Shown: in pieces, positions 677 through 56,468 of the stretch
Numbering within the stretch: position 1 is the first letter of the stretch
Layout: each line of letters begins with the position of its first letter
Assembly: GCA_963726745.1 (NCBI GenBank)
Contig: CAVSDR010000003.1
Coordinates: 1,056,001 to 1,120,000 of the forward strand
Origin: an uncultured Verrucomicrobiae bacterium
GTDB taxonomy: Bacteria; Verrucomicrobiota; Verrucomicrobiia; Chthoniobacterales; UBA10450
Reading direction: 5' to 3'
DNA length: 64,000 nt
Position numbers and translations under genes: made by a program
Notes under the pieces: model-generated
Seen by the model: only the letters and a program-made list of their open reading frames with translations
What the model was told of the DNA's origin: nothing
The model's database searches: none

Positions 677-1699
677 CTAGGAAGCGGAAAGCTGCGGTTT
701 CTTTTTCCGGTCGCGCGCCATGCGCGGGAGCGCGCCAAACAAGCCCTGCGGCCGCAGAAGCATGAGCGCAATCAAGACGAGCGAGAAAATGATCATGCGA
801 TTCGCGGCGATCCGGCGGACGATGTCCGGGAGCCACTCATAGCCCGCGACAAACCGGAGATACTCGAGCAAAACAGTCAGCAAGATGGCGGCAAAGGTGA
901 CGCCGGCGGTGCTGCCCATGCCGCCGAGGATGACCATGATCACAATCTGGATGGAGAGCTGAAAGTCGAAGCCGCTGGGATTGATGTAAGTCGTGGTGTG
1001 CGCGTAAAGCCCGCCCGCGACTCCAGCGAAGAACGCCCCCAGGACAAACGCCGTTACCTTGTAGCGCGTGGTATTGATCCCGATCGCTTCCGCGGCAATC
1101 TCGTCATCGCGCACGGTCAGGAAGCCGCGGCCGTAAGTCGAGTCGATCATGCTTACGACCACGTAGATCGTGATCGCCGCGACCGCGAAGGTCCAAAAGA
1201 GAGTGGTGTAACCGGCGATGCCGCTGTAACCGCGCGGGCCGCCGACGGCATCAGTGTTTTGGATTAGAACACGAATGATCTCGCCGAAACCGAGAGTAAC
1301 AATCGCAAGATAATCGCCCTTCAACCGCAGCGAAGGCACACCTACGATAAGTCCCGCGAGCGCGGCCGCGAGACCGCCGATCAGGAGGGCCGCGGCGAAG
1401 ACGACGAAGATGCTGAAGCTTCCTGAGCCACCGAGCAGCTGGAAAAGGCCGCCGCTTTTCTCGGTCGAAAAATAAGCCGCGGAATAGGCGCCGATGGCCA
1501 TGAAGCCGGCGTGACCTAACGAGAACTGGCCGGTGTAGCCATTGATCAGGTTAAGGCTGCTGGCGAGGGTAATGTTGATCCCGATGAAGAGCAGGACCTG
1601 GAGGTAGTAAGGATTAAACGAGCCGGCGAAACGCGAGGCTACTGCCGCCAGGATGAGCGCCGCGACCAGGGCGAGTTGTTTGAGATGCCGATGCTGCAT
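677..1699 (-). CDS. livM: Branched-chain amino acid ABC transporter permease
   Basis: Hydrophobic; SLNLINGYTGQFSLGHAGFMAIGAY, LRLKGDYLAIVTLGFGEI, RDDEIAAEAIGIN motifs. Confidence 0.93.
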   Translation of the reverse strand: MQHRHLKQLALVAALILAAVASRFAGSFNPYYLQVLLFIGINITLASSLNLINGYTGQFSLGHAGFMAIGAYSAAYFSTEKSGGLFQLLGGSGSFSIFVVFAAALLIGGLAAALAGLIVGVPSLRLKGDYLAIVTLGFGEIIRVLIQNTDAVGGPRGYSGIAGYTTLFWTFAVAAITIYVVVSMIDSTYGRGFLTVRDDEIAAEAIGINTTRYKVTAFVLGAFFAGVAGGLYAHTTTYINPSGFDFQLSIQIVIMVILGGMGSTAGVTFAAILLTVLLEYLRFVAGYEWLPDIVRRIAANRMIIFSLVLIALMLLRPQGLFGALPRMARDRKKKPQLSAS

Positions 1700-1717
1700 G
1701 GCGAACGATCTTGCCGG

Positions 1718-2626
1718 CTAAACTTTCTCCACCTGCATCTTGCCGAATAAACCCGCGGGCCGGAACAAGAGGATGATGATAAGAATCGCGAAAGCAATCG
1801 CGTCGCGGTAGGTCGAGTAGACTGAGCCGGCGACAAAGGTTTCCACGATTCCAAGAATCAACCCGCCCACCGCCGCGCCGGGAATGTTTCCGATGCCGCC
1901 GAGGACCGCGGCCACGAAGGCTTTGATACCTGGCAGGATGCCCATCAGCGGATCGATCGAGGGATAACTAATCGCGTAAAGAATGCCGGCCGCGCCCGCC
2001 AGCGCGCTGCCTAAAGCGAAGGTAAAGGAGATGACCGTGTCGATGTTTACTCCCATGAGCGCGGCAGCGGTGGCGTTATTCGAGAGCGCGCGCATCGCCA
2101 TACCCATCTTGGTGCGCTTGACCGTGTAGGTTAGTCCAACAAGGAGCAACAAAGTGACGGCAAACGCCGCAATCTGCGTGGTCGTGATCGTGAGCGCGCC
2201 GGTGTTTTCCAAGGCACGATCTTCGACCAACTCGGGAAAAGCCTTCGGATCGGCGCCAAAGATAAACTGCCCGGCGTATTCCAGGAACAGGGAGACGCCG
2301 ATGGCCGTGATCAGGACGGTTAATTTCGGCATTTTCCGGAGTGGGCGGTAAGCCAGGCGCTCGATGAGTACGCCGATGGTGGCGCAAATGGCCATGGTGG
2401 CGACGAGGACAACGCCCACGCCCACCGGCGCGAGCGAGCCGGTGAAATGTGGAAGGATGCGCGGAGTTAAGTAGTAACCGCTAAAAGCCCCCAGCATGAA
2501 AACATCGCCATGCGCAAAGTTAATAAACCGGAGCACGCCATAAACCATGGTGTAGCCCAGCGCGATCAAGGCATAGAAGGCGCCTAAGGAAAGGCCGTTG
2601 ATTAACTGCTGCCAGAACTGCATCAT
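1718..2626 (-). CDS. livH: Branched-chain amino acid ABC transporter permease
   Basis: QQLINGLSLGAFYALIALGYTMVYGVLRFINFAHG and KAFVAAVLGGIGNIPGA motifs. Confidence 0.94.
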   Translation of the reverse strand: MMQFWQQLINGLSLGAFYALIALGYTMVYGVLRFINFAHGDVFMLGAFSGYYLTPRILPHFTGSLAPVGVGVVLVATMAICATIGVLIERLAYRPLRKMPKLTVLITAIGVSLFLEYAGQFIFGADPKAFPELVEDRALENTGALTITTTQIAAFAVTLLLLVGLTYTVKRTKMGMAMRALSNNATAAALMGVNIDTVISFTFALGSALAGAAGILYAISYPSIDPLMGILPGIKAFVAAVLGGIGNIPGAAVGGLILGIVETFVAGSVYSTYRDAIAFAILIIILLFRPAGLFGKMQVEKV

Positions 2627-2650
2627 CCGCGGCCTGCTTTCTCGGGGAAC

Positions 2651-3787
2651 TTAAGGAGCAACCGTGGCCACGAATTCGTTGCCTTTGTTGTCGACCTTCA
2701 AAACCACCGCGGACTTGGTGGCGTTGCGCTTCTCGTCGATCGTGATCTTGCCGGTCACGCCGTCGAAGTCCTTGATGTTAGCCAGCGCATCGCGCAGCTT
2801 CGGGCCTTCGGTCGAAGCGGCGGCGTTCATCGCCTGCGCCAGGACCATCATTGCATCGTAGCCCAGCGGGGCCATCCCATCGGGCATGGCGCCGTATTTC
2901 GCCTGATAACGTTTCACGAAATCCTGCACCTTCGGGTTGGTATCCTTGGGCGAGAAGTGAGTCGAGAAGTAGCTCCCCTCGATCGCGCTCCCGCCGATCT
3001 CGCTCAGCTTGGGCGAATCCCAACCATCGCCGCCGAGCAACGGCACCTTGATGCCTAACGAGCGGGCCTGCTTCGCGATCAACCCGGCTTCGGTGTAGTA
3101 ACCAGGAACGAAGATCGCATCTGGTTGCGCGGCCTTGATCGAGGTGAGCTGCGCGCGGAAATCGCGATCCGTCCCGCCGCCACTGAAGGAACGCTCGACC
3201 ACGATTTTGCCGCCATGACTTTCGAAGTATTCCTTGAAGTATTTCGTCAGGCCAACGGAGTAATCATTTCGCACATCGGTCAGGATGGCGACCTTCTTGG
3301 CCTTTAAGTTATCGAGCGCGAACTTCGCCATCACCGTCCCTTGGAAAGGATCGATGAAGCAGACGCGGAAAATATAGTCGCCCACTTCGGTCACGCGGGC
3401 ATTGGTCGCGCCCGGCGAGACCATGGGCATCTTGGCTTCCTGGCAAATCGGCGCCGCCTCGAGCGAGCGGGAGCTGGCGATCTCGCCGATGACCGCGACC
3501 ACGCGATCGCTCGAGATGAGCTTCTTGACCGCGGCGGAAGGCTGGCCCGGCTTCGACTGATCGTCCTCGGTGATGATCTTGATTTGCCGGCCGCCGAGGA
3601 CGCCGCCCTTGCTGTTGATGTCGTCGAGCGCGAGCGCGACACCGTTGCTGGAGTTAATCCCGAAAGTCGCTTCGCTGCCGGTGAGCGAAGCGTATTGGCC
3701 GACCGGAATTTCCTGCGCGCCGAGCGGCAGCGCAGTCCAGATAAGGGCTCCGAGCGAAAGAATTGCGAGGCGGAGGGATGGCTTCAT
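2651..3787 (-). CDS. Branched-chain amino acid ABC transporter periplasmic substrate-binding protein (LivJ/LivK family)
   Basis: Signal peptide; SLTG...FG, EDDQSKP, YIFRVCFIDPFQG, GGDGWDS, GVTGKIT; heads the livHMG operon. Confidence 0.92.
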   Translation of the reverse strand: MKPSLRLAILSLGALIWTALPLGAQEIPVGQYASLTGSEATFGINSSNGVALALDDINSKGGVLGGRQIKIITEDDQSKPGQPSAAVKKLISSDRVVAVIGEIASSRSLEAAPICQEAKMPMVSPGATNARVTEVGDYIFRVCFIDPFQGTVMAKFALDNLKAKKVAILTDVRNDYSVGLTKYFKEYFESHGGKIVVERSFSGGGTDRDFRAQLTSIKAAQPDAIFVPGYYTEAGLIAKQARSLGIKVPLLGGDGWDSPKLSEIGGSAIEGSYFSTHFSPKDTNPKVQDFVKRYQAKYGAMPDGMAPLGYDAMMVLAQAMNAAASTEGPKLRDALANIKDFDGVTGKITIDEKRNATKSAVVLKVDNKGNEFVATVAP

Positions 3788-4911: not shown

Positions 4912-4920
4912 CCAGCAAGC

Positions 4921-5652
4921 TCAGCGGTGCCGACGCTCGCCTGGAAGCGGCGGTGGCGTGTTCTTTTTCAACGGCGTGGCCGCGTCGTCTTCGGGCGCGA
5001 ACTCGAACGACTCTTTGGCGATCGGCTGGTTCACCGTGATCTCGCGGTGCGTTTCCTCCATTCGGTAGCCGCTGTAGAGGGCCACGATTTTGCGGACCAG
5101 GTGATCGTCTCGCCCGATCCAGACATCGTAGGGATCGCTCTGCCAGACGCCATGAACTTGCTGGCAAAGGACGCCATCGATCGTCTCCTCGCCGACGATT
5201 GCAGCCTCGTCGAGTTGATGCAGCCGGCGCGGGCCACCATAGCTGCTCTCGAGGAGACTCGGGATGTGATAGGCGTAAGTGCCGAACATTTTCGAGCCGG
5301 CCAGCTGCACCTTCGCGCGAGATTTCACCGGCTGCGTGGTGCCCCAGGTGCGGATGCTGTCGCCATTCGCCCAGAGGACTTCACGCGTTGGTTTCTCGGT
5401 GCCGCCGCCCGGGGCCTTGGTCACAGCGTCGATCCGGAAAAGCGCCGGCCGTTGGAACCAAATGCGGTAATCTACCTGGGCGCCGGCGGCGCCGTCGGGA
5501 TTGGTGAAATGCGCCGTGCTCGTGTCGGTGTAGGACGAAAGGGCGGCGTAGGTTTGCTCCATCGTGCGCAGGAGCGCGGTCGCGGCCTCGTCGGCGCGGA
5601 TCCCGCGCGCGCTCAGGCAAAGGAGAAGGCAAAAGAGAATTGCGCGGCGCAT
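4921..5652 (-). CDS. Secreted LolA-like / lipoprotein-sorting-fold protein
   Basis: C-terminal part of the 937-aa track ORF; own start MRRAILFCLLLCLSARGIRA (signal peptide), MEQTYAALSSY, IWFQRPALFRID, VWIGRDDHLVRKI, NQPIAKESFEF. Confidence 0.65.
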   Translation of the reverse strand: MRRAILFCLLLCLSARGIRADEAATALLRTMEQTYAALSSYTDTSTAHFTNPDGAAGAQVDYRIWFQRPALFRIDAVTKAPGGGTEKPTREVLWANGDSIRTWGTTQPVKSRAKVQLAGSKMFGTYAYHIPSLLESSYGGPRRLHQLDEAAIVGEETIDGVLCQQVHGVWQSDPYDVWIGRDDHLVRKIVALYSGYRMEETHREITVNQPIAKESFEFAPEDDAATPLKKNTPPPLPGERRHR

Positions 5653-5708
5653 AGTCCCGCAACTGAACGCGCAAAGCGCTGGCTGTCGATGCGGAATTGC
5701 GCCGCAGC

Positions 5709-6297
5709 CTAACGAGCGGCGCGCTTCTTGACCCGGCGGCGGGCGGCGCTTTTTCGCGGCCGCCGGCTCGGTGCGCGCGCGCAGGCCCACTTGCATGTGC
5801 GGGAAGCCGATCACACGCAGAATCGCGTGATACTCGTGCCCGAGGCGGAAGAGATCGGGCAGCGGTAGGGTGCAAGCGACGGTGCGCTCCGCCCGCGGCG
5901 CGAGCTCAAAGGATTCCGGGGCCACGACCGCTTCCACGCGCACGGTTTCCTCGCCATCGTCGCGCACAAACTCGGAGAGCTCGAAGCGAATCGCCGCGGT
6001 CGCGCCGGTGGTGTTGGCCACGAGAAAGTTGTGCGTCTGCGCGCTCCCGATCGGACCTTCGAAGACGAGTTCCTGTGCCGCCGTGACTTCTGGCGGCGGG
6101 CCGCAGGGCGTCGCCTCCACGGTGAAGAGATTGCGGTAGAAACTCTGCGAAAGATGAAGCCCCACGTTCCAAACCTCGCGGTAATAGTTGAGGCTAAGCT
6201 GCGTCACTTTCTGGAAAGCGACCGGCGCTTCTGCGCGCCAGAATTCCGCATAGCGCTGCGGGAGCGAAGTGATCTCGGGAGGGGCGGACTCTTTCAT
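5709..6297 (-). CDS. Hypothetical protein D of uncharacterised operon (amphipathic helix, Ig-like domain, basic tail); apparent frameshift near 5735
   Basis: MKESAPPEITSLPQRYAEFW...FLVANTTGATAAIRFELSEF...HEYHAILRV; start is an ATGA overlap at 6294-6297; a one-base shift gives ...VKKRAAR then TAG at 5709-5711. Confidence 0.65.
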
Positions 6298-6965
6298 TTG
6301 GCTGCGCTTGCGGTCGTCGTTGGGGTTAGGGCGCACCGGCTGGAAGCAGGGCTCGGTGCATTGAAAATGCCGATACCAATCATCCGCGCGGATGCGTTGC
6401 GGGATCGCGCCCATCTCCAGCCGGCAACACGGCTCAGCTTCCGCGCTCACCTGCACCCGCAGGCAAAGGCAGCGCTCGTAAAGCCCGCGCACGAGAATCT
6501 CCGACTCGTAGGTTTCGCCTGCGCGCCACGTCTCGTCGGTGGAGAAAGAAACGCGCATCGATTGCGCTCCGCCGGCGGGAAGCGTCGCGCCTTTGGGCTC
6601 GACTTGCGGGCGCTGCTCGAGCGTTTCGCGGCAGGAGCGGAAAGGCGACGCCTCGAAGCCATATTGCACCCGCTCGTCGGCAGTGTTCCGCAGTTGAAAA
6701 TAGCCGACACGCTGGTCGCCCGGCGCCACCGTCCACTCGAGCGTGCAGGCGCAGCGCGGCGGGCAGGTGGTCTCGGGAATTTCGCAACCGCAACGCGCCG
6801 CCTCGACTGCGCCGGTGAAGAAACGGCTGTAGGCCTCGAACCAAGGCTGCAGCCCGCGCAGGGAAACGCGGAGCGCCTCGTTGTTCAGATCCGTGAGGCG
6901 CTGCACGAAATCGGGCGCGCCGGGAAGAACGCCGGGGCGCCGGCGCAGGATGGCTCTGGGTTCAT
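6294..6965 (-). CDS. Hypothetical Cys-rich protein C of uncharacterised operon; apparent frameshifts near 6922 and 6325
   Basis: ATG at 6965 overlaps the TGA of gene B; CGCEIPETTCPPRCAC, FQLRNT, CLCL, PCC, WYRHFQCTEPC; a shifted end gives ...PTTTASAAK then TGA overlapping the ATG of gene D. Confidence 0.65.
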
Positions 6966-7734
6966 AGGGTCTCCTTGGTGCCGGCTTTCTCGGTCGTGTA
7001 GATGTCGACCGTGAGCGTGGCGTTGTAGAGTTCGAGGAGCGCGCGGTAGTGGCGCGCCGGCTTGATGTCGTCGGGTAATTCAAAACGAGCGACCATCGCG
7101 CGGCGTTCGCCCGGCTGGAGGATGACGCGCTCGCGGTGCACCCGCAACGGGCCGACCTGCGCGCGGCCGACATCGTCGAGCACCCGCTCGAGACGCTGCT
7201 TGAGCTCCACGCCCACGTTTTTGCGCAGCCCTTCCTGGAAGCGCGGCAAAGAAGTCGAGCGAGTCGAGCAGCGGCGCTTCGCAGAGCGCGCCCAGCGGGA
7301 GCGGGACGTTGCCGGCATTCTCGGCGATGAACTCGCGCTCGAGCGTGCGTTTGCCGCCGGCCAGGAGCGTGACCGTGGTCGGCTCGATGCGGAAATCGAC
7401 CTGCTCGACCACGTGCGCCTCGACCGCCACGGTGCGGCCGCCCACGTCCATCTCCAATTCGTAAAGCCCGGGCGCGGTCCCGTCGCCTAACGAGAGCTCG
7501 AGCGGGACCAGCGCCTGTTCGCCCGGTTGCAGGCGCGCGCCCAGGTGCAACAAAGCGCCGTCTAATTTCTCCGCGCTCCTGGCCCCTTTCCGCGGGCGCA
7601 GGGAAACGCTCCGGAGCTTGAGCTTCTCGCGTGGAATCATTCCGCAGGTGGAGCTGGCCGCGGAGCGCCTGCGGCGGACCGGCGACGACCAGAGTGTCGC
7701 GACCGGTTTTAAGCGTGGGTGCGGGGGTGGCCAT
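6962..7734 (-). CDS. Hypothetical protein B of uncharacterised operon (two predicted Ig-like beta-sandwich domains); apparent frameshifts near 7633 and 7237
   Basis: Reconstructed from three track ORFs: MATPAPTLKT...LHLRNDS / REKLKL...APGLYELEMDVGG...FIAENAGNVPLPL / QEGLRK...FELPDDIKPARHYRALLELYNATLTVDIYT...KETL*. Confidence 0.65.
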
Positions 7735-7753
7735 CGGAACGCTCCATCTGCGA

Positions 7754-8146
7754 TCAGCGGCAAACCTCCGTTGCCCGCGGTTGATATTTCTCGTTGATCA
7801 CCTGGCTCTCCCCGCAGAGCGCGAGCTTCCAGATTTCCACGCCGAAAAGACAAAACGCGACCTGGTAATGCGCCGGCAAATGCACCCGCGTCTCGGGGAT
7901 TTCCTTGAGGGCGATGTTCAGGTTGCTGTTGGTGTCCACCCGCATGGTCGGCAATTCCTTCACCGAGATGTTCGAGTTGAAGGTCATCACCGGGACTTCC
8001 TTCACGCGCAGGACGACGTCCGGCACTTCCTTCACGTGGATGTTATCGAGGTCGCTATCGACCTGGATGGTGCTGCCGGGCAGGCCACCGAACTTGACCG
8101 TGTAATCCTTGGGAATGTTTACGCTGCCGCCGCCGCCTTTAGCCAT
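7754..8146 (-). CDS. Hypothetical protein A with four (V/L)KE(V/L/I)P repeats
   Basis: Intact 130-aa ORF with GC-rich third positions; VKEVP, VKEVP, VKELP, LKEIP repeats; C-terminal FCLFGVEIWKLALCGESQVINEKY...C. Confidence 0.8.
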   Translation of the reverse strand: MAKGGGGSVNIPKDYTVKFGGLPGSTIQVDSDLDNIHVKEVPDVVLRVKEVPVMTFNSNISVKELPTMRVDTNSNLNIALKEIPETRVHLPAHYQVAFCLFGVEIWKLALCGESQVINEKYQPRATEVCR

Positions 8147-8298: not shown

Positions 8299-9266
8299 AT
8301 GCCGCCGCCCGCCATCCGCCAAGCCTTCGTTCTCGGGGCCGGGCTGGGCCTGCGGCTCCGGCCGCTGACCGCGGATTTGCCGAAGCCGCTGGTGCCGATC
8401 TTCCAGAAGCCGCTGATCTCTTTTGCCTTCGACCATTTGATCGCGGCCGGCGTGGAGCGCTTTTGCGTGAACACGCACCATCAGCCGCAAGGTTTCGACG
8501 AAGCCTTCCCGGACGGGACCTACCGCGGGCGAGCGCTCCGGTTCCGGCACGAGCCGGTGCTGCTCGAGACGGGCGGCGGGATCGCGAATGTCGCGGACCT
8601 GCTGGGCGGCGAGCCGTTCCTGGTCTACAACGCCGACATTCTTTCCGACCTGCCGCTGGCGCCGCTCCTGGAGGAACACGCGCGCGCCGGGAACATGGTC
8701 ACGCTTGCGCTCCGCTCGCACGAAGGTCCGCGGCACGTGGCCTTCGATCGCGCCACCGGACGCGTGCTCGATATTCGCAATCTCGCAGGCACCGGCGCCG
8801 TCGACGAATTTATCTTCAGCGGCATCTACGTAGTGCAGCCGGAGTTTCTGCGCCTGCTCCAGCCCGGTGTGAAGCGGTCGGTCATCCCGACATTCATCGA
8901 AATGCTTCGCGGCGCCGGCCGCCTCGGCGGCGTCCTCCTCGACGAGGGTTCGTGGTGGGATGTGGGCACGCGCGCGGCCTATCTGGAATTGCATCGCGCA
9001 TTGCCCACGCTCGACTTCCCGCGCTACGGCGCGCCGGACGCAAACTGGCGGGCCGCGGTGCATCCCTCGGCGAAATTAGCCAGCGAGATCGAATTGCTGC
9101 GGGAGCACTGTCATCGGCGCGAGACGCAGAGGTCGGCGCCGGGGCGAAATTAGCCGACACCATCGTCTGGGCCGGGGCACAAATCGCTTCCCGCAGCGAC
9201 CTGCGTGGCTGTATCGTCCGCGCCCGCCAAACCGCCCAAGGAACCCTGCGTGACACCGACATCTAG
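8299..9266 (+). CDS. Nucleotidyltransferase family protein (MurU-like / sugar-1-phosphate nucleotidyltransferase); apparent frameshift near 9100-9125
   Basis: VLGAGLGLRLRPLTADLPKPLVPI, EPVLLETGGGI, VYNADI, WWDVGT; hexapeptide-like tail VGAGAKLADTIVWAGAQI is in another frame, ending at 9266. Confidence 0.85.
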
Positions 9267-10242
9267 CAGCCAAAAAACCGACCAGCTCCTGCGGCAAACG
9301 CGGCGGCATTTCCCGCTCATGGAGGCGGCCGAGGTGGAGATAACCCCGATCGAGAAAGGCGGGAGCGACCGGCGTTTTTATCGCGTGCGCACTGGCGGGG
9401 AGCAGTCGCTCATCCTGGTGAAATACCACCTCGAGCGCGGCGAGAACCGGCACTATGTGCAGATCGCGGAGTTTCTCGGGGCGCACGGAATTCGCGCGCC
9501 GAAAATCTATTTCCACGATGCCGCGGAAGGCTTGATCTGGATCGAGGATCTCGGTGCGAACGATCTCTGGACCTACCGCGGCGAGCCCTGGCCGGTGCGC
9601 CGGCAGCTCTACCAATCCGCCCTTGGCGAAGTCGCGAAATTGCATCGCCTTCCATTGACCGCAGCCGACCAATTGCGCCCGGATTTCCCGCAGGAATTCG
9701 ACGCCGCGCTTTACCACTGGGAGCAGCAATATTTCTTTGAGCATTGCCTGGGCCGGCGCTTCGGGCTGGACGAAACGGAGCGCGCGGAACTGGCCGCCTT
9801 GCCCGCGCTGGCCGCCATCGCCGAGCGGCTCGCGGCGCTTCCGCGCGTGCTGGTGCATCGCGATTTCCAATCGCAAAACCTCATCATCCGCGACGGCGAC
9901 GCCTGTTTGATCGACTTCCAAGGGATGCGTCCCGGCCTGGCGGAGTACGACCTGGCCTCGCTGCTCTACGATCCTTACGTCTCGTTAGGCGCGGAGGAGC
10001 GGGACGAGCTCTTCCGTTATTCCGGCACGCTGCATCCGGCCGACGAGGAAATCTTCCAGCTCTGCGCGATGCAGCGCTTGATGCAGGCGCTCGGCGCGTA
10101 TGGGAATCTGGGCCTGGTCAAGGGCAACCCCGCCTTTCTCGAGCACATCCCGCCGGCCCTGCGTTCGCTGCGGGCGGTCGTCGGCGAAATTGACGGCCTC
10201 GAGCCACTGCGGCTTGTGCTGGACGCTCTTCCCACCGAATAG
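9250..10242 (+). CDS. Aminoglycoside phosphotransferase family kinase (AmgK-like anomeric sugar kinase)
   Basis: GGSDRRFYR, EDLG, VHRDFQSQNL, IDFQG, YDLASLLYDPY, QRLMQALGAYG; paired with the MurU-like gene. Confidence 0.85.
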   Translation: MTPTSSSQKTDQLLRQTRRHFPLMEAAEVEITPIEKGGSDRRFYRVRTGGEQSLILVKYHLERGENRHYVQIAEFLGAHGIRAPKIYFHDAAEGLIWIEDLGANDLWTYRGEPWPVRRQLYQSALGEVAKLHRLPLTAADQLRPDFPQEFDAALYHWEQQYFFEHCLGRRFGLDETERAELAALPALAAIAERLAALPRVLVHRDFQSQNLIIRDGDACLIDFQGMRPGLAEYDLASLLYDPYVSLGAEERDELFRYSGTLHPADEEIFQLCAMQRLMQALGAYGNLGLVKGNPAFLEHIPPALRSLRAVVGEIDGLEPLRLVLDALPTE

Positions 10243-13708: not shown

Positions 13709-16537
13709 ATGAGGTGTCTGGTTCTACGCGGGGTGCAAGTGGCGCTGGCCCTGTTGCTTGTCGCGACTGCTCACGCGCAGCAGCCCGCGCCGCCGGAGGG
13801 TGGCGGGCTCCCGGAACTCTACGCCCAGGGCATGGCCGCGTTCCAAAACGGCGACTTTGCCGGCGCCGCGGGCCAACTCGAGGCGCTCATCGGCAAGGCG
13901 GAATTTTCCCCGCAACTGGAGCCGGTTTTTTTCACCATCGGCTCGGCCTGGTTCAACGCCGGAAACTACCCGAAGGCCATCGCCGCCTTCAACACCTACC
14001 GGCAAAAATTCCCCGCCGGCCCGCATAACGGCGACGCCATTTACGGGCTCGCGCAGGCCAATTTGCTGTCTAAAAACTTCGCCGAAGCCGCGCAGCTCTT
14101 CGCCGCCCTCGAAAGCGACCCAAAACTTCGCGAGCAAGCCCTCCTCGCCCAGGCGACCGCGCTCAAGGAAACCGGGAAAGTCGACCAGGCGATCGCCGCC
14201 CTCGAGAAACTAACCGCAGGTGAAATTCGCACCGCGCAGGGCGCGCGCGGCCTCATGCTCCTGGCCCAGACTTATGCGCAAAAAGGCGCGGCCGATAAGG
14301 CAGTCAAAACCCTCACCCGCCTGCATGCACAAGTGCGGCTGGTGGATAATTTGATTGAGCTCAACGGCATGACCATCGAGCTCGGCGACCAGCTCTTTAA
14401 GAAGAAAGAGTTCGTCGACGCGCTCGCGGCTTACCGCTCCGCTTACCCGCGCGAGCAGGTAATAAAAATGCAGCAGGAACGGATCGCCGCGATGACCCAG
14501 GCGATCGAGGATAACCGCAACGCCGCGCGCGCCGATCCCACGCAGGTCGCAAACCTGGGCACCGTGATCAACCAACTGAAGGCCGATATCACCCGCGCCC
14601 AGGAGTTACTCGCGGCCTTCGAGAAATTACCCGACATCACGCCAGCCATCTATATCCGGATGGCAAGTTCCTTCTACGAGACAGACAAGAAGTGGGAAGC
14701 TATCGTGGTCTACCAGGAATTGCTCGACCGCTACCCAAAGGCGCCGGAACGCGAAACCGCGCTTTTCGGCATCATCGTTTCCCTGGCCGAAGTGAACCAA
14801 GGCGAACGTGCGGTCGCGCGTTGCGAGGAATATCTGCGCGATTTCAAGACCGGACCGAACGCGGAAACGGTCGGCTATTTACTCGGTGCGGTCGCCCTGC
14901 AGGCAAACGATCCGCAAAAGGCCGAGACTTACTTCGGGCGTATGCTCGAGACGCAACCAAAAAGCAATTTCCGCGAGCAAATGCGCTACTTGTTAGGTAA
15001 CGCCAAGTTTATGGCCGGGAAGCACGAGGAAGCGATTGCGGAATATCAGAAGTATCTTAAGGAATACCCCAAAGGCCAGAACGTCGAAGACGTCACCTAC
15101 CGCATGGCCTTGACCTCGGTTTTCGCGGGGAAATACGAAGAGGGCATCCAGAAGCTTAACGATTACCTCAAGCAGTATCCGCAAGGCATTTTCGTGAGCG
15201 ACGCACGCTACCGTCTTGCTGTCTGTTACTACGCCGCCTCGCAATACGATCAGGTGATCAACGACTGCAAAGCCTGGGAGCGCGACTTCGAAAAGAACCA
15301 GCAACTTGGCGAAGTGCTCGCGCTCCTGGCCGACTCCTATGCCGCCACGGGCCGCGACCAGCTGGCGATCGACGAATACATTCGCTCCTACAAAAGCGCC
15401 ACCACCGACGAGGTGATGAACTACTCGCTTTTCGCCGCGAGCAAGCTCCTGCAAAAGCAGGGCGAGTGGAACCGGGTGAGCGACCTTTTCGCAGAGTTCA
15501 TCAAGGAGCGCCCGGATCATCCCACCGTGATCACCGCGCTTTACTGGATCGGAAAAGCCAAGGCGCGTGAGGGCCAGGTGGACGAAGCCAAGAAGATCAC
15601 CGCCGACACGATCAAGAAATACATCGGCAATCCGCAGCGCGAAGCAGTGGAGCTTCTCCTCACGCAACTGGCGCAGCTCTCGGTAAAGAAGAAGCCGGCG
15701 GTGGCGGAAGGCGAGACTACACCCGCGCCACCAGCGGTCGATCCCGGCGCGGAGCTCGAACAATTACTGGGCGACAGCGCGGGCGACACCTCGCCCACGA
15801 CCAAGGCGCGCATCCTTTTTGCCAAAGCCGAGTTGGCCCGTCTCCGCCGACAGCCTGCGGAGGAAGAGAAGAACATCGCCTTGATCGCGACGACCGCGAA
15901 GCCGGAAGAGTTAAGTCCGATACTCCTGGGACGCGCGGGAGATTATCTCGTCGGCAAAGGCAAACTCGACGAAGCCAAGCCATTCTTCGATCGGCTGATG
16001 GAGGAATACCCTAAAAGCGAGAACATCGACTTTGCCTACAATGGGCTGGGTGAAATCGCACTGCTGAAGAAGGATTACCCGAAAGCTTTGCGCTACTTTA
16101 CCGACGGAAGCGAAAAAGTGGTCGCGATCCAGAAGATGAAGGATCTAACCATCGGCAAAGCCAAGACGCTTCTGGCGATGGACCGGCTGGTGGAGGCGAA
16201 GAAAGTCTTCGAACAAATCGCTTCCGTGCGCGACTGGCGCGGCGAGGCCACGGCTTTCAGCGTTTACTCGTTAGGGGACATCGAAGCGCGCCAAGGTCAC
16301 TGGGCGGAGGCGAATGCTTACTTCCAGCGGGTTTTTGTCGGTTACCGGAAATACCTTCCCTGGGTCGCGAAAGCTTATCTAAGGAGCGCGGAGAGTTTCG
16401 AGAAACTGGGCAAGCCGCAGGAAGCAGCCAATACCTACCGCGAGCTGGTCCGTTTGTCGGAAGACAAGAAGGAGCTGCAAGGCTTTGCCGAGACTTTGGA
16501 AGCGCGGAAGAAACTGGAGGCCATGGGACAAGGATGA
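13709..16537 (+). CDS. Large secreted tetratricopeptide-repeat protein
   Basis: Signal peptide ending ATAHA; many TPR-like units (AIAAFNTYRQKFP, YQELLDRYP, YQKYLKEYP, YLKQYP). Confidence 0.85.
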   Translation: MRCLVLRGVQVALALLLVATAHAQQPAPPEGGGLPELYAQGMAAFQNGDFAGAAGQLEALIGKAEFSPQLEPVFFTIGSAWFNAGNYPKAIAAFNTYRQKFPAGPHNGDAIYGLAQANLLSKNFAEAAQLFAALESDPKLREQALLAQATALKETGKVDQAIAALEKLTAGEIRTAQGARGLMLLAQTYAQKGAADKAVKTLTRLHAQVRLVDNLIELNGMTIELGDQLFKKKEFVDALAAYRSAYPREQVIKMQQERIAAMTQAIEDNRNAARADPTQVANLGTVINQLKADITRAQELLAAFEKLPDITPAIYIRMASSFYETDKKWEAIVVYQELLDRYPKAPERETALFGIIVSLAEVNQGERAVARCEEYLRDFKTGPNAETVGYLLGAVALQANDPQKAETYFGRMLETQPKSNFREQMRYLLGNAKFMAGKHEEAIAEYQKYLKEYPKGQNVEDVTYRMALTSVFAGKYEEGIQKLNDYLKQYPQGIFVSDARYRLAVCYYAASQYDQVINDCKAWERDFEKNQQLGEVLALLADSYAATGRDQLAIDEYIRSYKSATTDEVMNYSLFAASKLLQKQGEWNRVSDLFAEFIKERPDHPTVITALYWIGKAKAREGQVDEAKKITADTIKKYIGNPQREAVELLLTQLAQLSVKKKPAVAEGETTPAPPAVDPGAELEQLLGDSAGDTSPTTKARILFAKAELARLRRQPAEEEKNIALIATTAKPEELSPILLGRAGDYLVGKGKLDEAKPFFDRLMEEYPKSENIDFAYNGLGEIALLKKDYPKALRYFTDGSEKVVAIQKMKDLTIGKAKTLLAMDRLVEAKKVFEQIASVRDWRGEATAFSVYSLGDIEARQGHWAEANAYFQRVFVGYRKYLPWVAKAYLRSAESFEKLGKPQEAANTYRELVRLSEDKKELQGFAETLEARKKLEAMGQG

Positions 16538-23190: not shown

Positions 23191-23201
23191 CGAGTCGCTG
23201 G

Positions 23202-28708: not shown

Positions 28709-31905
<3,197 letters not shown>

Positions 31906-38306: not shown

Positions 38307-38396
38307 AATGTGCTGCCAGTTTCGCTGAGAGAAACAACTGGGCGGCTCTGCTGCTCATCTCGCCGGCTAAACCTCCGGCGCCTCCAGGAGAAACCA

Positions 38397-43417: not shown

Positions 43418-44235
43418 CCGAATCTTCCGGTGATGTAGTCTTCCGTTTGGCGTTGCGCCGGATTGCTGAACATCTTGCGCGTGTCACTGAACTCGATCAG
43501 TCGCCCGAGGTAAAAGAAGGCGGTTTGGTCGGAAACGCGACCGGCCTGTTGCATGTTGTGGGTCACGATCACGATGGTGTATTGCGTTTTCAGGTGGCGA
43601 ATGAGTTCCTCCACTTTCGCGGTCGCGATTGGGTCGAGCGCGGAGCAGGGCTCGTCCATCAGGAGAATCTCCGGTTCCACCGCGAGCGCGCGCGCGATGC
43701 AAAGCCGCTGCTGCTGGCCGCCCGAGAGTCCGTAGCCGCTCATGTGCAACCGGTCCTTCACCTCGTCCCAAAGCGCAGCCGCGCGCAGGCTCTTCTCCAC
43801 GGCCTCGTCGATCGCGGCGCGTTTTTTAATTCCGGCGATGCGCAGGCCGTAGGCGATGTTGTCGTAGATCGATTTCGGGAAGGGATTCGATTTCTGGAAG
43901 ACCATCCCGACGTTCCGGCGCAGGTCGACCACGTCGATCCGGGGATCATTGATGTCGAGCCCGTCGATCCGAATGGAGCCCTCGGTAATGCGCGCACTTT
44001 CGACCAGATCGTTCATCCGGTTAAGGCAGCGGAGCAGCGTGGTCTTGCCGCAACCCGACGGCCCGATGAAAGCGGTCACCGCGCGCGCGGGGATAGCCAG
44101 CGAGATGTCGTGCAGCACGGCGTTCGTGCCGTAGGCAAAGCTGAGATGATCGATCTCAATCGAAGCCGCTGGCACCGATGCGGCGGCGGAGGGTGTGGGG
44201 GGCTCAAGCGCAGGCATGGTGGAAAGCGTTACCAT
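43414..44235 (-). CDS. pstB: Phosphate ABC transporter ATPase
   Basis: C-terminal part of the 1125-aa track [61 protein letters not shown]; start 44235 or 44217. Confidence 0.95.
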
Positions 44236-45254
44236 GATAGACGGGTGCGGCTGCGTTCGCGCAAGACCACGGACGCGAGCGCGATCAACATCACCAGGAG
44301 GAGGAAGACGAGCGCGGCGCCGTATTGCACCCGCTCGGTGTATTCGTTTTGCGGGATCTTCGAGCTGACGACGTAGATGTGATAAGGCAGCGCCATCACG
44401 CCCTGGAACACAAAGTCGGTCGCGCGCTGCACCTGCCAGGGCATCTCGTCGCGCATCGCGTAAGCCGCGGTGAACATGATCGGCGCGGTCTCGCCGGCGA
44501 CGCGCGCGATCCCGAGGATCGAGGAGGTGAGAATGCCGGGCAGCGCGTAAGGCAGGACGTTCTTGCGGATGGTTTGCCACTTGGTCGCGCCGAGCGCGAG
44601 TGAGCCTTCGCGCAACCCTTGGGGCACGGCGCGGAGCGACTCTTCGCTCGCGGTGATAATAGCCGGCAGGATCATGAGCCCGAGAGTGAACCAGCCAGAC
44701 AGCAGGGAGACGTTCCAGCCGAAGAAGATCACGAAAAGGCCAAAGCCGAAGAGCCCGAAGACGATCGAGGGCACGCCCGCGAGATTGAGAATGGCCACGC
44801 GGGTCAGGCGAATAAACGGCCCGCCGCCGCTGTATTCGCTCAGGAAAATCGCGGCGCTGATCCCGATGAAGAGCGCCAGCGTCATCGAGCCGAGAACGAG
44901 CAGCGCGGTGCCGACGATGCAAGGCCAGATGCCGCCGGCAGAATAGGCGACCGTTTGCGGCTCGACCGCGGCCGTTGGATGCGCTGCCTGCCACTCCCGG
45001 AAATCCTGGTCGCCTAACGAGAGCTTTTGGCCCTCGAAGTCGAACACGTAAAGCGTCTGCGGGCTTTCGCTGAGGAAAGCGAAGTTGATGAACGGAGCGT
45101 GCGTGGTGAAGAGCGTGCGGCTCCCCTTGATTCCGATGTCGAGAAAGATGTAGGCCGCGCAGGCGATCACGAAATAGGTCGCGAGCCGGAAGGCCCAGAA
45201 GGCGCTGCGCTCGAGGAGGCGGTTGCGGGAACCGTTGGCGGTGCGCGTCTTCAT
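44229..45254 (-). CDS. pstA: Phosphate ABC transporter permease
   Basis: [48 protein letters not shown]. Confidence 0.95.
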
Positions 45255-46782
45255 TTACCCAATGCTCATGCGGAAACGCGCGACCAGGCGCTGGGCCAGG
45301 TAATTGATCAGGAGCGTGATGAAAAAGAGGACCAGCCCGACCATGAAGAGCGCGCGGTAATGAATGCTCCCGCGCACCACCTCGCCCATCTCCTGCGCGA
45401 TGATCCCGGTCATGGTGTGGACCGGTTGGAAGAAAGCGCCCAGGCCTTCGGTGAAATCGGGAATCTCGATCCGGTTTCCCGCGCAGAGCAGCACCACCAT
45501 GGTCTCGCCGATGACGCGGCCGAGCCCGAGCAAAATAGCCGACACAATGCCGGAGAGCGAAGCGGGCACGAGCACGCGCGCGATCGTTTGCAGGCGATTG
45601 GCGCCGAGCGCATAGGAGGCTTCCTTGAAGCCGCGCGGGACGTTGCGGAGCGCGTCTTCCGAGAGGGTGAAGATCGTCGGCACGGCCATGAGCGCGAGCA
45701 GACAGCCGGCAGTGAAAACATTCAGCCGCTCGGCGATCGGGAAGAAATGGATCCAGCTGAGCCAGGAACTTTCCGAGGCGGTGCGGATCGCCTGGCCGAC
45801 GACGGCAATTCCAAAGAACCCGAGCACGACCGAAGGAATCGCGGAAATGAATTCGAGGTAGGGCTTGATCAGCTTCTTCTCGCTCGCGGAAGCGATCTCG
45901 CTCACGTAGATCGCCGCGGCCACGCCGAAGGGAACGGCGAGCACAAGCGCGACCACCGAGACCATGATCGAGCCGACAAAGAGCGGCGTGATCCCATACC
46001 AATCCTGCCAAAAGCTGGCCGTGATCCAATCGTGCCCGAACAGGAAAGTCGTGAGCGTGCGATACCAGACGACCGGTTGATCCACGTTCCAGGCTTCGAG
46101 TTGCGCGGTGGTCTGCGGCATCTCCGCGACGTAGCCGCGGGCCAGCTCCTGCCAGCGCACGAAAGCTTTTTGCGCCATCGCGTCGGCTAATCTCGGCGGC
46201 GCCGCGAGCAAGGCGGTGACTTGCTCGCCGATAGTCGTGGCCGCCGCGGCGTAGGCCGGAGTGCTTCCGCGCAATTGCTCGAGCATTGCGCGGGGCGGCG
46301 CGGGCCGGTCGGGGTTGGCGCCCAGCTGCGCTTTGGCTTCGCTCGCGAGGTCGCTCGCATCGGAGAGGACGCTTTGCAGCGGATCGGCCGTGTCGCTGAA
46401 GGCGCTGGCAAATTGATCGAAGGGCGCAAGGCCGGCGTTGATTTCTTCCAGGGGAACGCCGGCGCGCTGCCCGGCGCGGAGTTGTTTCAAACGGATTTGG
46501 TTGAGGCCGCGATTGAGCGCGACCTGCGCGTCGGCCTGCTTGCGGATGAGGTCCACGTATTCCTGCCCGCTCATGCGGTAGAGCCGGAGGTTGCGCAGGT
46601 TTTGCCCGAAAAAGCCGAAGCCTTCGCGGAAAAGGAAACAGCGTGATCAGCGCCAGGACGACGATGGCGACGAGCGCGTTGCTCCCGAAGAAATATTTGA
46701 TCCAACGATCGGCCGAGACGCGTTTGCGGTTGGCGCGCTGCTTCGCGGCAAAGCTTTCGGGGATGGCAGCGGCCGGATCCAT
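45255..46782 (-). CDS. pstC: Phosphate ABC transporter permease with extended periplasmic loop; apparent frameshift near 46632
   Basis: N-terminal TM ([10 protein letters not shown]) in one frame, the rest in the 439-aa [30 protein letters not shown]. Confidence 0.92.
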
Positions 46783-46829
46783 GGCCGGCAAATCTGCGCC
46801 TGCTCTCGACGCCGACCAACCGCTTTCGT

Positions 46830-48160: not shown

Positions 48161-48191
48161 TCGTTAGGCGCCGGGGCGGTGAAGTTGCTGG

Positions 48192-49226
48192 CTAAAACGC
48201 GGCCGCGGCCCGGGCGAGGACGTAGGCGATCAAACCAGTCGCCGGCAGGGTCAGGACCCAGGCCCAGACGATCCGCTCGACCACGCCCCATTTCACGCCG
48301 CTGAAACGTTTGACCGCGCCCACGCCCATGATCGAGGTGCTGATCACGTGCGTGGTCGAAAGCGGGATGCCATGCGAGCTGGCCACCTGGATGATGACCG
48401 CCGCGGTCGTCTCCGCCGCGAAGCCGTGGACCGGCTGCAGTTTCACCATCTGGTGGCCGAGGGTGCGGATGATGCGCCAGCCGCCGGCGGCCGTGCCCGC
48501 GGCCATGGTGATCGCGCAAAGGAAGATGACCCACTTCGGGATGACGAAAGTGGGCGTATCGAGAAAATGCAGCAGCGGCGGGAGCCCGGCGAAGGCGCCG
48601 CTGCCGGTAGCGGTGAAAAGCGCGAGGGTGATGATGCCCATGGTCTTCTGGGCGTCATTGGTGCCGTGGCTGTGCGCCATCCAGGCGGCGCTTACGAGCT
48701 GGAGCTTGCCGAAGATGGTGTTCACCAGATGCGGGGTGAACGGCCGCAGAATCAGGAGAAGCAAAAACATCAGCAACCCGCCGACGAGAAAGCCGACGAC
48801 CGGCGAAGTGATCATCGGCACGACCACTTTCGGGATCAGGCCGGTGCTCCATTTCAAGACCGACCAGTCGTTTTTGGCATAAGCCAGCGCGGCGCCGCAA
48901 AGCCCGCCGATGAGCGCGTGGCTCGAGCTCGAAGGGAGGCCGAGCAGCCAGGTGATGAGGTTCCAAACGATCGCGCCGGTGAGCGCGCAAAGGATCGCGC
49001 CCATCGTGATCACGTTCGTATCGACCATGCCTTTGCCGATGGTGGAAGCGACCGCGGTGCCCATGAGCGCGCCGGTTAAATTAAAGAAAGCCGCGAGCGC
49101 GATCGCCTGCCGCGGGGTGAGCACGCGGGTGGAGACAACCGTGGCGATGGCGTTGGCCGCATCGTGAAAGCCGTTGATGTACTCAAAGGCGATCGCCGCG
49201 AGGACGACGATGAAGAAGAGAAGCAT
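48192..49226 (-). CDS. pit: Inorganic phosphate transporter, PiT family
   Basis: NGFHDAANAIAT, GLPSSSSHALIG, HGTNDAQKTMG, GIPLSTTH. Confidence 0.94.
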   Translation of the reverse strand: MLLFFIVVLAAIAFEYINGFHDAANAIATVVSTRVLTPRQAIALAAFFNLTGALMGTAVASTIGKGMVDTNVITMGAILCALTGAIVWNLITWLLGLPSSSSHALIGGLCGAALAYAKNDWSVLKWSTGLIPKVVVPMITSPVVGFLVGGLLMFLLLLILRPFTPHLVNTIFGKLQLVSAAWMAHSHGTNDAQKTMGIITLALFTATGSGAFAGLPPLLHFLDTPTFVIPKWVIFLCAITMAAGTAAGGWRIIRTLGHQMVKLQPVHGFAAETTAAVIIQVASSHGIPLSTTHVISTSIMGVGAVKRFSGVKWGVVERIVWAWVLTLPATGLIAYVLARAAAAF

Positions 49227-49239
49227 GGCCGGGCCGGCT

Positions 49240-52624: not shown

Positions 52625-52637
52625 ACCGGCGCGTGCC

Positions 52638-54462: not shown

Positions 54463-54594
54463 AAACGCAAAGGTGAGGCGGCGCGACGCTCGGAGAGACG
54501 CCGCGCGAAGTCAATTCGCGGGCCCGGGCCCGCGCGGATGCCGCGGCAAGTGCGTGCAAATACGGCGCGCCTGTTTATCGTCCGCTTTCGTCCC

Positions 54595-55026
54595 ATGAAT
54601 ATCTCCCGCCTTCTCCTCGCGATCCTGGCCGGTTTCGCCTTCATTTTTGCCAGCGACTTCCTCGTGCACGGCCTTTGGCTGGCGGCCGATTACAAGGCGA
54701 GCGCATCGCTCTGGCGGCCGGAAGCGGAAATGCAACGCCGCATCGTGATCATGCTGGGCGGGCAACTTCTCTGCGCGCTCGCCTTCGTCTACATCTGGGC
54801 GAAGACCGGCTGGCGCCGGCGCAGCGTGCTCGACGGCTGCGCCTTCGGTTTCTGGATGGGTCTTTTCCAGCAGGTTTGGGTGATCGCGAATTACGTGGTC
54901 ATGCCCATGCCGCTGGTCCTGACGATCAAATGGTTCTTCGCCGGCCTGGCCCAGGCGATCCTCCTCGGCGCGCTCGCGGCGCTGATCTACAAGCCGCTCT
55001 CCCTCACGCAGCAACGCGGGACTTAA
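54595..55026 (+). CDS. Hypothetical membrane protein
   Basis: Four TM helices; DFLVHGLWL..DY...WRP. Confidence 0.7.
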   Translation: MNISRLLLAILAGFAFIFASDFLVHGLWLAADYKASASLWRPEAEMQRRIVIMLGGQLLCALAFVYIWAKTGWRRRSVLDGCAFGFWMGLFQQVWVIANYVVMPMPLVLTIKWFFAGLAQAILLGALAALIYKPLSLTQQRGT

Positions 55027-55036
55027 CTTCATCATC

Positions 55037-56468
55037 ATGCTTCGAAATTCCTTCCTCGCTCTCCTGCTCACGGTAGCCGCAGCCGGCGCGCAAACGCCCT
55101 CGCCGTCCCCCACCCCGGCGCTGCTTTCGCCGGCGACGCTCACGGAGTTAAAGCAGCTGCAACAAGCGGCGCTGGAGAGCGATTACGCCTGGAAACAGGT
55201 GGCGCATCTCGCGAACAACATCGGCCCGCGCCTGAGCGGATCCGCGCAGGCGGCGAAGGCGGTCGAGTATGTCGCCGCTGAGCTGAAGCGACTCGGGCTC
55301 GAGGTGCGCACCGAGAAAGTGATGGTGCCGCATTGGGTCCGCGGCGAGGAGACCGCGGCGCTGGTGGAATTTCCCGGCATGGCCGAGGGGACCACGCAAA
55401 AGCTCGTCCTCTGCGCGCTCGGCGGGAGCGTGGCCACGCCGCCGGAAGGGCTCACCGCGGAGGTCGTGGTGGTGAAGGATTTCGACGAGTTGAACTCGTT
55501 AGGCCGCGAGAAAATAGCCGGCAAGATCGTGGTCTTCGATCACGCTTTCGATGAAGCCATGGCCGCGCAGGGCCGCTCCGGCGAAGCCTACGGCCAGGCC
55601 GTGGTTTATCGCAGCGATGCCGCCAGCGCCTCGGCCCGTTTGGGCGCGGTCGCGGCCCTTATCCGCTCCGTGGGCGGTGCGGATTATCGCCTGCCGCACA
55701 CCGGCGCGATGCATTACGCCGAGGACGCGCCGAAAATTCCTGCGGGCGCGCTCGCCGCGGAGGACGCGATGTTGCTGTCTAATTTAGCGCCGCAGGGGAA
55801 GCTGCGGATGCACCTCACGCTCACGCCGCAAACGCTGCCGGACGTCGAGAGCTACAACGTCATCGGCGATCTCAAAGGGAGCGCGCATCCCGAGCAGGTG
55901 GTGATTGTTTCCGGGCACCTCGACTCGTGGGATCTCGGCACGGGTGCGATCGATGACGGCGCCGGCGTGGCCGTCTCCATGCAGGTGGCCAATCTGGTGA
56001 AGCAACTGAAGTTGCAGCCTAAACGCACCATCCGCGTGATCGCCTGGATGAACGAAGAGAACGGCCTGCGCGGCGGCAAAGGCTACGCGGAGGCGCATGC
56101 CGCAGAGTTGCCGAATCACGTCGGCGCGATCGAGACCGATGGCGGTGCGGACCACCCGGTAGGGATCAACGTGAAAGGCTCGGCGGAGTTGAAAGCGGCC
56201 CTCGCGCCGGTGGGGAAAATCCTCCAATCGCAGGGCGCCGGGATTCTCGACCGGGTCGAGCACGCGGGCGCGGACATCAGCCCGCTGCTGCCCACCGGCA
56301 TGCCGCAGTTCTCCCCGATCCAGGATGGCCGGCGTTACTTTCACTACCACCACACCGCAGCCGATACGCTGGATAAAATCGTCCCGCGCGAGCTTGCGGA
56401 AACGGCCTCGATCAACGCCGTCCTCGCCTACGCGCTTGGCGAATATGGAGGAGACGCCGCCGCGTTAA
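55037..56468 (+). CDS. M28 family peptidase (carboxypeptidase Q-like); apparent frameshift near 56440
   Basis: IGPRLSGS, SGHLDSWDLGTGAIDDGAG, NEENG, YHHTAADTLDK; shifted end ANMEETPPR then TAA at 56466-56468. Confidence 0.9.

Follow-up and report, generated by a model that had tools for sequence, protein, structure and literature searches.

Introduction

The closest described counterparts of the words analysed here are the uptake signal sequences (USS) of the Pasteurellaceae and the DNA uptake sequences (DUS) of the Neisseriaceae, two mucosal families that, according to the available part of bioRxiv 2025.10.24.684340, are the only ones for which uptake sequences are described. USS and DUS have a non-palindromic core of 9-10 bases with weaker flanks, are found hundreds to thousands of times per genome, on either strand and inside genes at a cost to the protein, arise by point changes, are thin in new DNA, are evenly spread and form family-restricted dialects (PMC7811141; bioRxiv 2025.10.24.684340); the even spread of USS is ascribed to drive, which needs no fitness benefit (PMC7811141). 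Here, a window, by which we mean the whole stretch of 64,000 nucleotides at C3:1,056,001-1,120,000 (contig C3) from the genome of an uncultured Verrucomicrobiae bacterium, is analysed together with that genome for two dispersed, strongly over-represented motifs, M1 and M2, which share the USS and DUS properties listed above. By analogy, we favour the reading, at a probability of roughly one half, that M1 and M2 are uptake-sequence-like tags, which biased transformation with short fragments may have propagated, each motif through a channel of its own.

Several properties set M1 and M2 apart from USS and DUS. The sequence and the phylum are unrelated, two independent motifs are present in one genome, the spacing scale is 300-400 bp, inverted-repeat terminators are absent, little is lost in conserved genes, M1 is identical to an integron crossover end, and no ComP/ComN-like reader was found. 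M1 and M2 would appear to work like DUS and USS, yet they cannot be filed as either, since the terminator feature fails. HIP1 (highly iterated palindrome 1) of cyanobacteria is likewise a hyper-abundant short word that is found in all frames and conserved at orthologous places and has lineage variants (PMC5861425), whereas M1 is non-palindromic, lacks periodicity and has no evident methylase site. Chi, KOPS (FtsK-orienting polar sequences) and AIMS (architecture imparting sequences) are short asymmetric words that accumulate in genes in a replichore-polarised manner, in contrast to M1 and M2. M1 also resembles the R box of the integron sites attI and attC, and M2 resembles attG; unlike att sites, however, the dispersed sites lack a hairpin or partner box, require GC behind the core, are independent of intI and lie by the thousand inside intact genes. 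No description of the M1 motif was found in the literature searched, which held few subscription papers, and among the matches listed for the exact 9-mer all are unrelated by title. The signal is real, family-wide and unexplained.

Results and Discussion

Abundance, shape and coding context of the motifs

The assembly comprises 3.41 Mb in 7 contigs with ~64% GC and is 94.7% complete. The initial annotation of the window had reported 13 exact copies of a 9-mer (CTCGTTAGG), all of which are present at the positions and on the strands given, compared with 0.24 expected and a maximum of 2 in 100 shuffles. The nine one-mismatch variants that it listed are also present, and four more are found at 18083, 36198, 38496 and 50128, so that 26 window matches with at most one mismatch compare with 9.5 expected. 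In the genome at Markov order 4, CTCGTTAGG occurs 960 times versus 43 expected. The over-representation of the 9-mer is confirmed, whereas shifting its boundaries by one base gives the strongest word, TCGTTAGGC, with 1,312 copies versus 84 expected, 631 and 681 of them on the two strands.

A two-component mixture model fitted to all 6,288 genomic TTAG sites with their flanks yields M1, with the consensus W-S-S-a-c-TCGTTAG-G-C and a genome total of ~2,184 sites, and M2, with the consensus a-a-W-TTAG-c-C-R-R-C-R-M-N-W-T-S and ~1,795 sites. A single long motif is rejected, as two components fit better, extra components yield no third motif, and the ranges of M1 and M2 differ. The second motif, which shares TTAG-N-C with the first, the family-wide range and the integron match described below extend beyond the initial annotation.

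The effect on coding was evaluated in 2,732 long genes from our own gene caller. These genes contain 955 copies of TCGTTAGGC, compared with ~10-18 under synonymous codon shuffling, a ~90-fold excess. M1 occurs in four frames, on both strands and in intergenic DNA, and the flank preferences of both motifs are the same in every frame and in intergenic sites. As had been proposed, the word forces rare codons: TCG-TTA-GGC is used at 443 of 750 Ser-Leu-Gly tripeptides, against 161 predicted from codon pairs, and TCGTTAGGC also inflates the tripeptides themselves (Ser-Leu-Gly 750 versus 454 expected, Pro-Asn-Glu 244 versus 95). Additionally, ~500 of 3,058 stop codons lie inside a motif.

The probability that a codon-pair preference, a peptide motif or a sequencing artefact produces these counts is close to nil. 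The commonest frame, TCG-TTA-GGC, accounts for 443 of the 955 genic copies, and this share and the stop codons inside motifs are what such an explanation can draw on; however, the other 512 copies lie in frames or on a strand without a TTA codon, the excess persists under the codon-pair-aware null, the M1 density in intergenic DNA is as high as that inside genes (0.66 versus 0.55 per kb), and 143 of 147 other assemblies of the family also carry an excess. M1 as a product of codon-pair preference or of a peptide motif is thus rejected, and an assembly artefact is excluded because of the excess in the other assemblies and the sharing of sites at orthologous positions. Short-read cover of the window sites is found in none of the matches listed (24 pieces) from three soil runs; no RNA data set is among the runs listed.

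Twelve of the 13 window copies read in the coding direction, nine as Ser-Leu-Gly and two as Leu-Val-Arg, in agreement with both the open reading frame (ORF) list and our gene calls; the frame is ambiguous at 7486, and the copy at 29903 is antisense. This orientation is a local property of the window and does not generalise, as the genome-wide counts in long genes are 442 sense and 282 antisense for CTCGTTAGG and 513 and 442 for TCGTTAGGC; the probability of at least 12 of 13 at a sense fraction of 0.61 is 0.015.

Distribution along the chromosome

Neither motif shows a replichore bias, as the split with respect to the G-rich strand is 821/783 for M1 and 661/636 for M2. A polarity of the Chi or KOPS type is not supported; a separate KOPS-like word in the same genome is polarised 111/35. 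The density of both motifs is even along the genome, with no gradient from origin to terminus and no exclusion zone. The origin lies near C3:991,000, ~65 kb ahead of the window, and a dif-like site is located at C2:305,114, at the GC-skew maximum, where the KOPS-like words change strand.

Low-GC stretches are poor in both motifs (per 10 kb by GC class, M1 2.0 versus 7.6 and M2 2.7 versus 5.7), and the motif-poorest stretches encode O-antigen-type and defence genes, as judged from 85 of 200 listed proteins scanned. Among 699 genes with orthologues, the M2 density is lowest, at 0.32 per kb, in the top identity class. The single 16S gene contains no motif site, where ~2 are expected. In the region of this gene (C6:176,800-179,300), 16S is followed by tRNA-Ala, tRNA-Ile and apparently non-rRNA sequence, and 23S seems to be unlinked.

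The sites of each motif avoid one another at short range. M1-M1 pairs occur at ~0.23-0.3 of expectation below 100 bp and rise to ~1 by 300-450 bp, and M2-M2 pairs follow the same ramp; for both motifs, the effect holds in either orientation and extends beyond gene borders. In contrast, M1-M2 pairs occur at 1.1-1.3 of expectation and thus show no cross-avoidance, and four control 7-mers lack the ramp. A toy model of saturating benefit with hand-set parameters reproduces the ramp with segments of 300-400 bp and does not do so with segments of 150, 2,000 or 7,000 bp. The periodicity of M1 is within noise, without helical phasing; the M2 spectrum contains one peak near 1.5 kb with a power of 8.0, compared with ~4.6 for noise.

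An abundant chromosome-organising or repair-helping protein, with two paralogues for M1 and M2, might also bind such sites under selection for roughly even coverage, comparable to what is considered for HIP1. Sites that are kept at orthologous places, unpolarised, self-avoiding and nearly indifferent to protein constraint would be expected from such a protein, and for HIP1, conservation in all frames and a link to a chromosome-level function are reported (PMC5861425). However, we regard this explanation as unlikely: a gradient or exclusion zone at the origin or terminus, a clear M1 periodicity and helical phasing are all absent, the M1 density varies from 4 to 1,355 per Mb in the family and more than 15-fold within one genus, and ~1,800 sites are new in one species, so that an essential structural role is hard to fit to this spread and to a second set confined to a single species. 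If the reader were cytoplasmic, it would represent an unknown chromosome-binding system able to rewrite thousands of codons.

Range among relatives and history of the sites

The DnaK of the window genome is 87-91% identical to homologues from Chthoniobacterales, one of them from Ca. Udaeobacter, and by this comparison the genome would probably belong to the Udaeobacter family. Relatives were surveyed in an even draw that comprised 147 family genomes after three unpublished genomes and the window genome had been excluded; in the following, G000 is the window's own genome, G0xx and G1xx are compared genomes, and Lnnn are DNA stretches read from them. TCGTTAGGC is commoner than its reversed control in 143 of the 147 genomes (all except G059, G068, G073 and G163), with a median of 96 and a maximum of 1,355 per Mb. 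Other families of Chthoniobacterales contain 1-19 copies (16 genomes), and further Verrucomicrobiota contain at most 18 (219 genomes). The prediction of a lineage-specific, genome-wide signal at the DNA level is supported. The flanks differ between lineages: the window's genus prefers A at -8 and A-C at -5/-4, and in G083 and G055 position -4 is free and TCGTCAGGC is tolerated.

M2 is nearly private to the window species. Its strict pattern occurs 854 times in the window genome, 53 times in G015, 47 times in G011 and 0-20 times in the other 31 genomes of the genus; the 33 genomes compared include three unpublished ones, on which the result does not depend. A third dispersed word, CAAGATCGACAA(T), reaches ~1,000 per Mb in G044 (L153-L157) and 300 per Mb in G068 (L105-L112) and has CGACAA in common with one form of M2. 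A repeated element with the words TGTCATCCCGAG and GAGATCCCTC is present in G061 (L123-L127), G052 (L148-L152) and G002 (L238-L247); it is probably a palindrome resembling repetitive extragenic palindromic (REP) elements and is not among the top words of the window genome.

In alignments of orthologues, motif sites stand in register opposite non-motif sequence, without insertion scars, and the amino acid identity is 0.62 in motif codons compared with 0.71-0.73 in the flanks, which indicates that M1 and M2 sites are born by substitution and alter the proteins. Only 44-54% of four-fold sites are identical between orthologues. Where a permissive tripeptide is present in both genomes, G072 carries M1 at 30 of 38 places with a site in the window genome versus 15 of 121 places without one, and ten other genomes pooled carry it at 41 of 89 versus 19 of 362; the corresponding odds ratios of 26 and 15 may be inflated by shared flanking residues. 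M2 sites are almost never common to orthologues. The persistence of M1 in orthologues and the near absence of shared M2 sites suggest that M1 is old and maintained and that M2 is young.

Phage mimicry was rejected as a source of M1, as none of 43 viral loci with the 14-base version of M1 is motif-rich or clearly family-derived, a comparison of low power. The terminase family PF03237, the only one tried, gave no match in 151 family genomes; this search, also of low power, hints at few prophages in the family.

Correspondence with integron recombination sites

The initial annotation did not recognise the word from any described system; the word does, however, match the crossover end of the attI and attC sites of the family's integrons. 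In an outgroup genome, it is clustered at 500 bp steps that correspond to attC ends. The window genome contains an array of 16 attC sites on the minus strand (C6:736,000-745,400) behind an attI site, without an integrase gene. Cassettes also accompany two additional attI-like sites, and one cluster is decayed; these loci lie at C4:149,400-151,100 (L318), C3:632,300-633,300 (L319) and C4:24,500-25,500. The array, the further attC sites and the three attI-like sites all terminate in TCG/TTAG-R-Y, as do most family attI sites examined (~24 adjoining intI). M1 equals the TCG/TTAGGC end letter for letter, the match to the GTT core holding for M1 only, and the near-invariant A at -8 of attI coincides with the A/T preference of M1 in every frame and in intergenic sites. 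Positions 6-9 of M2 read C-R-G-C, which matches CRGM, a validated attG hotspot motif (bioRxiv 2022.09.11.507474). In a related attC type (family f19), the ends are mostly ACGTTAGGC, so that TCG in attC ends appears to be lineage-typical.

The two classes of sites differ in detail. At the dispersed sites, the bases behind GTTAG are GC in 1,312 cases (TCGTTAGGC), CC in 240 (TCGTTAGCC) and AT in only 7 (TCGTTAGAT), the last number being that of the AT-ending attC sites in the array; att ends show no preference for GC over AT at +4/+5. Additionally, TT is retained at -6/-5 of the att ends, which do not vary with the M1 dialects.

An integron integrase or its helper might itself read the words, M1 as the att core and M2 as an attG-like arm, and might have spread them by acting on incoming DNA or on the chromosome itself. 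The identity of M1 with the attI/attC end, the shared A at -8, the CRGM in M2 and the lineage-typical TCG argue for this idea, and in Vibrio transformation supplies cassette recombination (PMC12614218). We nevertheless consider it quite unlikely. No intI is found in the window genome, where XerC and XerD are the only tyrosine recombinases, or in the high-density genomes G024, G071, G083, G084 and G104, whereas intI is present in the motif-free G059, in 9 of 12 outgroup genomes and in 47 of 68 family genomes; these absences are soft because integrons often break assemblies. The M1 density differs little with and without intI (p 0.053), and the outgroup G028 has TCG-type attC without a genome-wide excess. 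The near lack of AT-ending dispersed sites, the TT at -6/-5, the disregard of the dialects, the A/T instead of G at -1 of M2 and the orthologues without insertion scars also speak against an integrase. XerC and XerD were likewise dismissed, as the arms of the dif candidate are unlike M1 and M2 and the Xer segment compared is near-identical in the motif-free G059.

The match between M1 and the att ends seems too precise to be set aside, and we estimate the odds that it is causal as about even. A receptor may have adapted to the ends of cassettes, an existing signal may have attracted the att ends, or both may depend on a common host factor. If the match is causal, it would provide an origin for such signals.

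Biased transformation and candidate readers

Among the four options named in the initial annotation (uptake, recombination, nucleoid protein or methylase), uptake fits best by analogy with USS and DUS. In the proposed mechanism, a sequence-preferring step of transformation would cause word-bearing DNA from kin to enter or recombine more often, and word-creating alleles would displace word-less ones by molecular drive until protein function sets a limit. One site may nearly suffice per ~300-400 bp segment, which would imply that the relevant fragments or conversion tracts are short. M1 would represent an old family-wide channel with lineage dialects and M2 a second, independent and recently gained channel; by our reasoning, two additive channels would produce self-avoidance without cross-avoidance. 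The counts, shape, distribution, point-change origin and spacing of the sites are directly observed, and uptake, drive, fragment size and the existence of two readers are what we infer from them. Both recombination and ComEC operons have been reported for soil populations that include a verrucomicrobium, but the available part of that source does not single out this family (PMC7305173).

A more specific scenario is tentative and rather unlikely. A receptor may first have been tuned to the integron crossover end for cassette harvesting, after which the word was driven chromosome-wide, and lineages may gain new receptors (for M2, or for CAAGATCGACAA in G044 and G068), each of which lays down its own layer; the result would be private species barcodes and a third independent uptake-signal system, in a soil family that is dominant in its habitat.

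The window genome encodes ComEC, DprA, PilT and ComZ-like pilins, which are equally present in motif-free relatives. Throughout the order, a ComEA-like helix-hairpin-helix (HhH) domain follows a conserved, apparently thermonuclease-like domain in the same protein (L164, L165, L166 and L168); the corresponding gene of the window genome lies at C4:17,230-17,874. Two paralogous three-gene clusters of tip pilins, each ending in a PilX/DUF7305 protein, are located at L272:4423-6934 and at C6:623,578-626,133 of the window genome, one of them near dprA. The best structural match of a folded pilin model (pLDDT 82) is Thermus ComZ, with an E value of 2.5e-7 and a TM score of only 0.26, which suggests that DUF7305 may mark ComZ-like competence pilins. 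Thermus ComZ is described as a DNA-binding competence pilin in a host without uptake specificity (PMC6561018). Of 63 family genomes, 37 encode a ComZ-like pilin, as do 2 of 14 outgroup genomes. The copy number of this pilin is negatively correlated with M1 density (64 genomes, rho -0.44; the first 36 alone, rho -0.50; the window's genus, rho -0.58); this trend offers a lead, in that an unselective route may dilute a selective one. MutL and HhH_3 do not separate the genomes, as each is present in 5 of 5, motif-rich and motif-free alike.

A number of observations weigh against uptake-sequence-like tags as the explanation. Among the candidates compared, no protein qualifies as a reader of M1 or M2: ComEC is present in 42 of 44 genomes, motif-free ones included, and DprA and PilT are present in 5 of 5 genomes tested, including the motif-free G059 and G027. 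The ComZ-like pilin is rejected as the M1 reader, as it occurs in G059 and many dense genomes lack it; a second minor pilin is rejected as well, being patchy and present in G059. The nuclease-HhH gene of the window genome ends before the ComEA-like HhH part. The ComZ trend is only weakly apparent when the 28 added genomes (rho -0.30, p 0.12) or the genus means (p 0.15) are considered alone. The M1 density is nearly flat over the identity classes of the 699 genes with orthologues (0.49-0.69 per kb). Inverted-repeat terminators or REP-like hairpins are not found, opposite-strand pairs below 100 bp occurring at 0.24-0.32 of expectation. In samples of 60-300 kb, self-avoidance is weak in G072 (0.68, 0.81) and G061 (0.53, 0.48) and absent in G083 (1.66, 0.72) and G115 (0.85, 0.89), and the word of G044 shows no clear self-avoidance in 100 kb. 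The ramp is compatible with any kind of benefit that reaches saturation within a segment. Transformation tracts of H. influenzae average 6.9 kb (PMC7811141), far above the scale of 300-400 bp observed here, and uptake alone leaves the match of M1 to the att ends unexplained.

A further alternative is a methylation- or motif-directed mismatch-repair ratchet, which would turn near-matches into the word, and in which a nearby site would restore correct repair and thereby leave a hole of 300-400 bp. The methylase sites of the MmeI family and of BREX (bacteriophage exclusion) systems are asymmetric with a penultimate A, like TCGTTAG, which counts for such a ratchet; MutL is present, and a ratchet of this type has been proposed for HIP1 (cited in PMC5861425). 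However, this alternative is very unlikely. The sole family-conserved methylase found, an orphan beta-class DNA methyltransferase of 263 residues (L180:1435-2223) that is ~70% identical across four family genomes, is rejected as a motif-tracking enzyme, as it is also present in the motif-free G059; the type I-like methylases are patchy, and neither PF02384 nor PF01555, searched in 5 genomes, tracks the motif. The graded flanks, the dialects and the 16-base M2 are unlike methylase sites, and the retention of sites over long times fits a mutational ratchet poorly. Additionally, one-off neighbours of the M1 core look depleted by eye but are not significantly so (348 observed versus 378, or a ratio of 0.66 without one accepted variant, where the 5th percentile of controls is 0.48). 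A HIP1-like or methylase site, as considered in the initial annotation, is also not apparent from the 9-mer itself, which is non-palindromic and has no evident methylase site.

If M1 and M2 are indeed uptake-sequence-like tags, they would constitute a third case of such tags, in an abundant uncultured soil family, with kin-biased gene exchange in soil as a consequence. They would also permit a direct test of molecular drive, given the 300-fold density variation among relatives, the young second motif and the spacing as a length scale, and the words could assist DNA delivery to these organisms or their binning.

Sites and gene content of the window

The window encodes ordinary housekeeping functions, and the matrix model assigns 25 M1-class and 36 M2-class sites to it between 1515 and 63764. 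M1 in the Ser-Leu-Gly frame is found on the minus strand at 1515-1523 in a livM-like gene, at 3054-3062 in a gene for a branched-chain amino acid binding protein, at 5708-5716 and at 45013-45021 in a phosphate ABC transporter gene, and on the plus strand at 9981-9989, at 16267-16275 in a gene for a tetratricopeptide repeat (TPR) protein, at 19355-19363 in a lipid kinase gene and at 55495-55503. The lipid kinase gene has a further plus-strand site in the Leu-Val-Arg frame at 19770-19778. The remaining plus-strand copies lie at 21517-21525, close to the start of ORF 21472-23190, and at 37510-37518 in an anti-sigma factor ORF; on the minus strand, the copy at 7486-7494 is of ambiguous frame because of two minus-strand ORFs, and that at 29903-29911 is antisense in a peptidase gene, in a frame of the Pro-Asn-Glu type. 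A minus-strand variant with C at +4 (23186-23194) provides on its reverse strand the stop codon of the gene ending at 23190 and adjoins an M2 site, and three minus-strand variants with T at -4 (58680, 58982 and 59468; 58680-59476) are antisense in the pyrR/pyrB region.

Four M2 sites contain the TAG stop codon of a gene, at 9149-9164 (plus; gene 8299-9153), 23191-23206 (minus; gene 23202-23546, adjoining the M1 variant), 42720-42735 (minus; gene 42731-43417, the top score in the window) and 48181-48196 (minus; gene 48192-49226). M2 in the TTA-Leu frame is located on the plus strand at 9075-9090 (a strong site), 35904-35919, 41765-41780 and 56941-56956 and on the minus strand at 46176-46191. 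The sites at 14059-14074, 20090-20105 and 55768-55783 are antisense on the minus strand, which also carries a strong site at 7551-7566 and a site at 38356-38371.

Overlapping long ORFs and split gene calls at 4921-7853 and 43414-46791 of the window suggest some assembly frameshifts, and similar signs are present elsewhere in the genome, in dprA and two pilin genes. The gene calls on C5 of the window genome include a tRNA-SeC, and the most avoided palindromic 4-mers of this genome are GTAC and CTAG.

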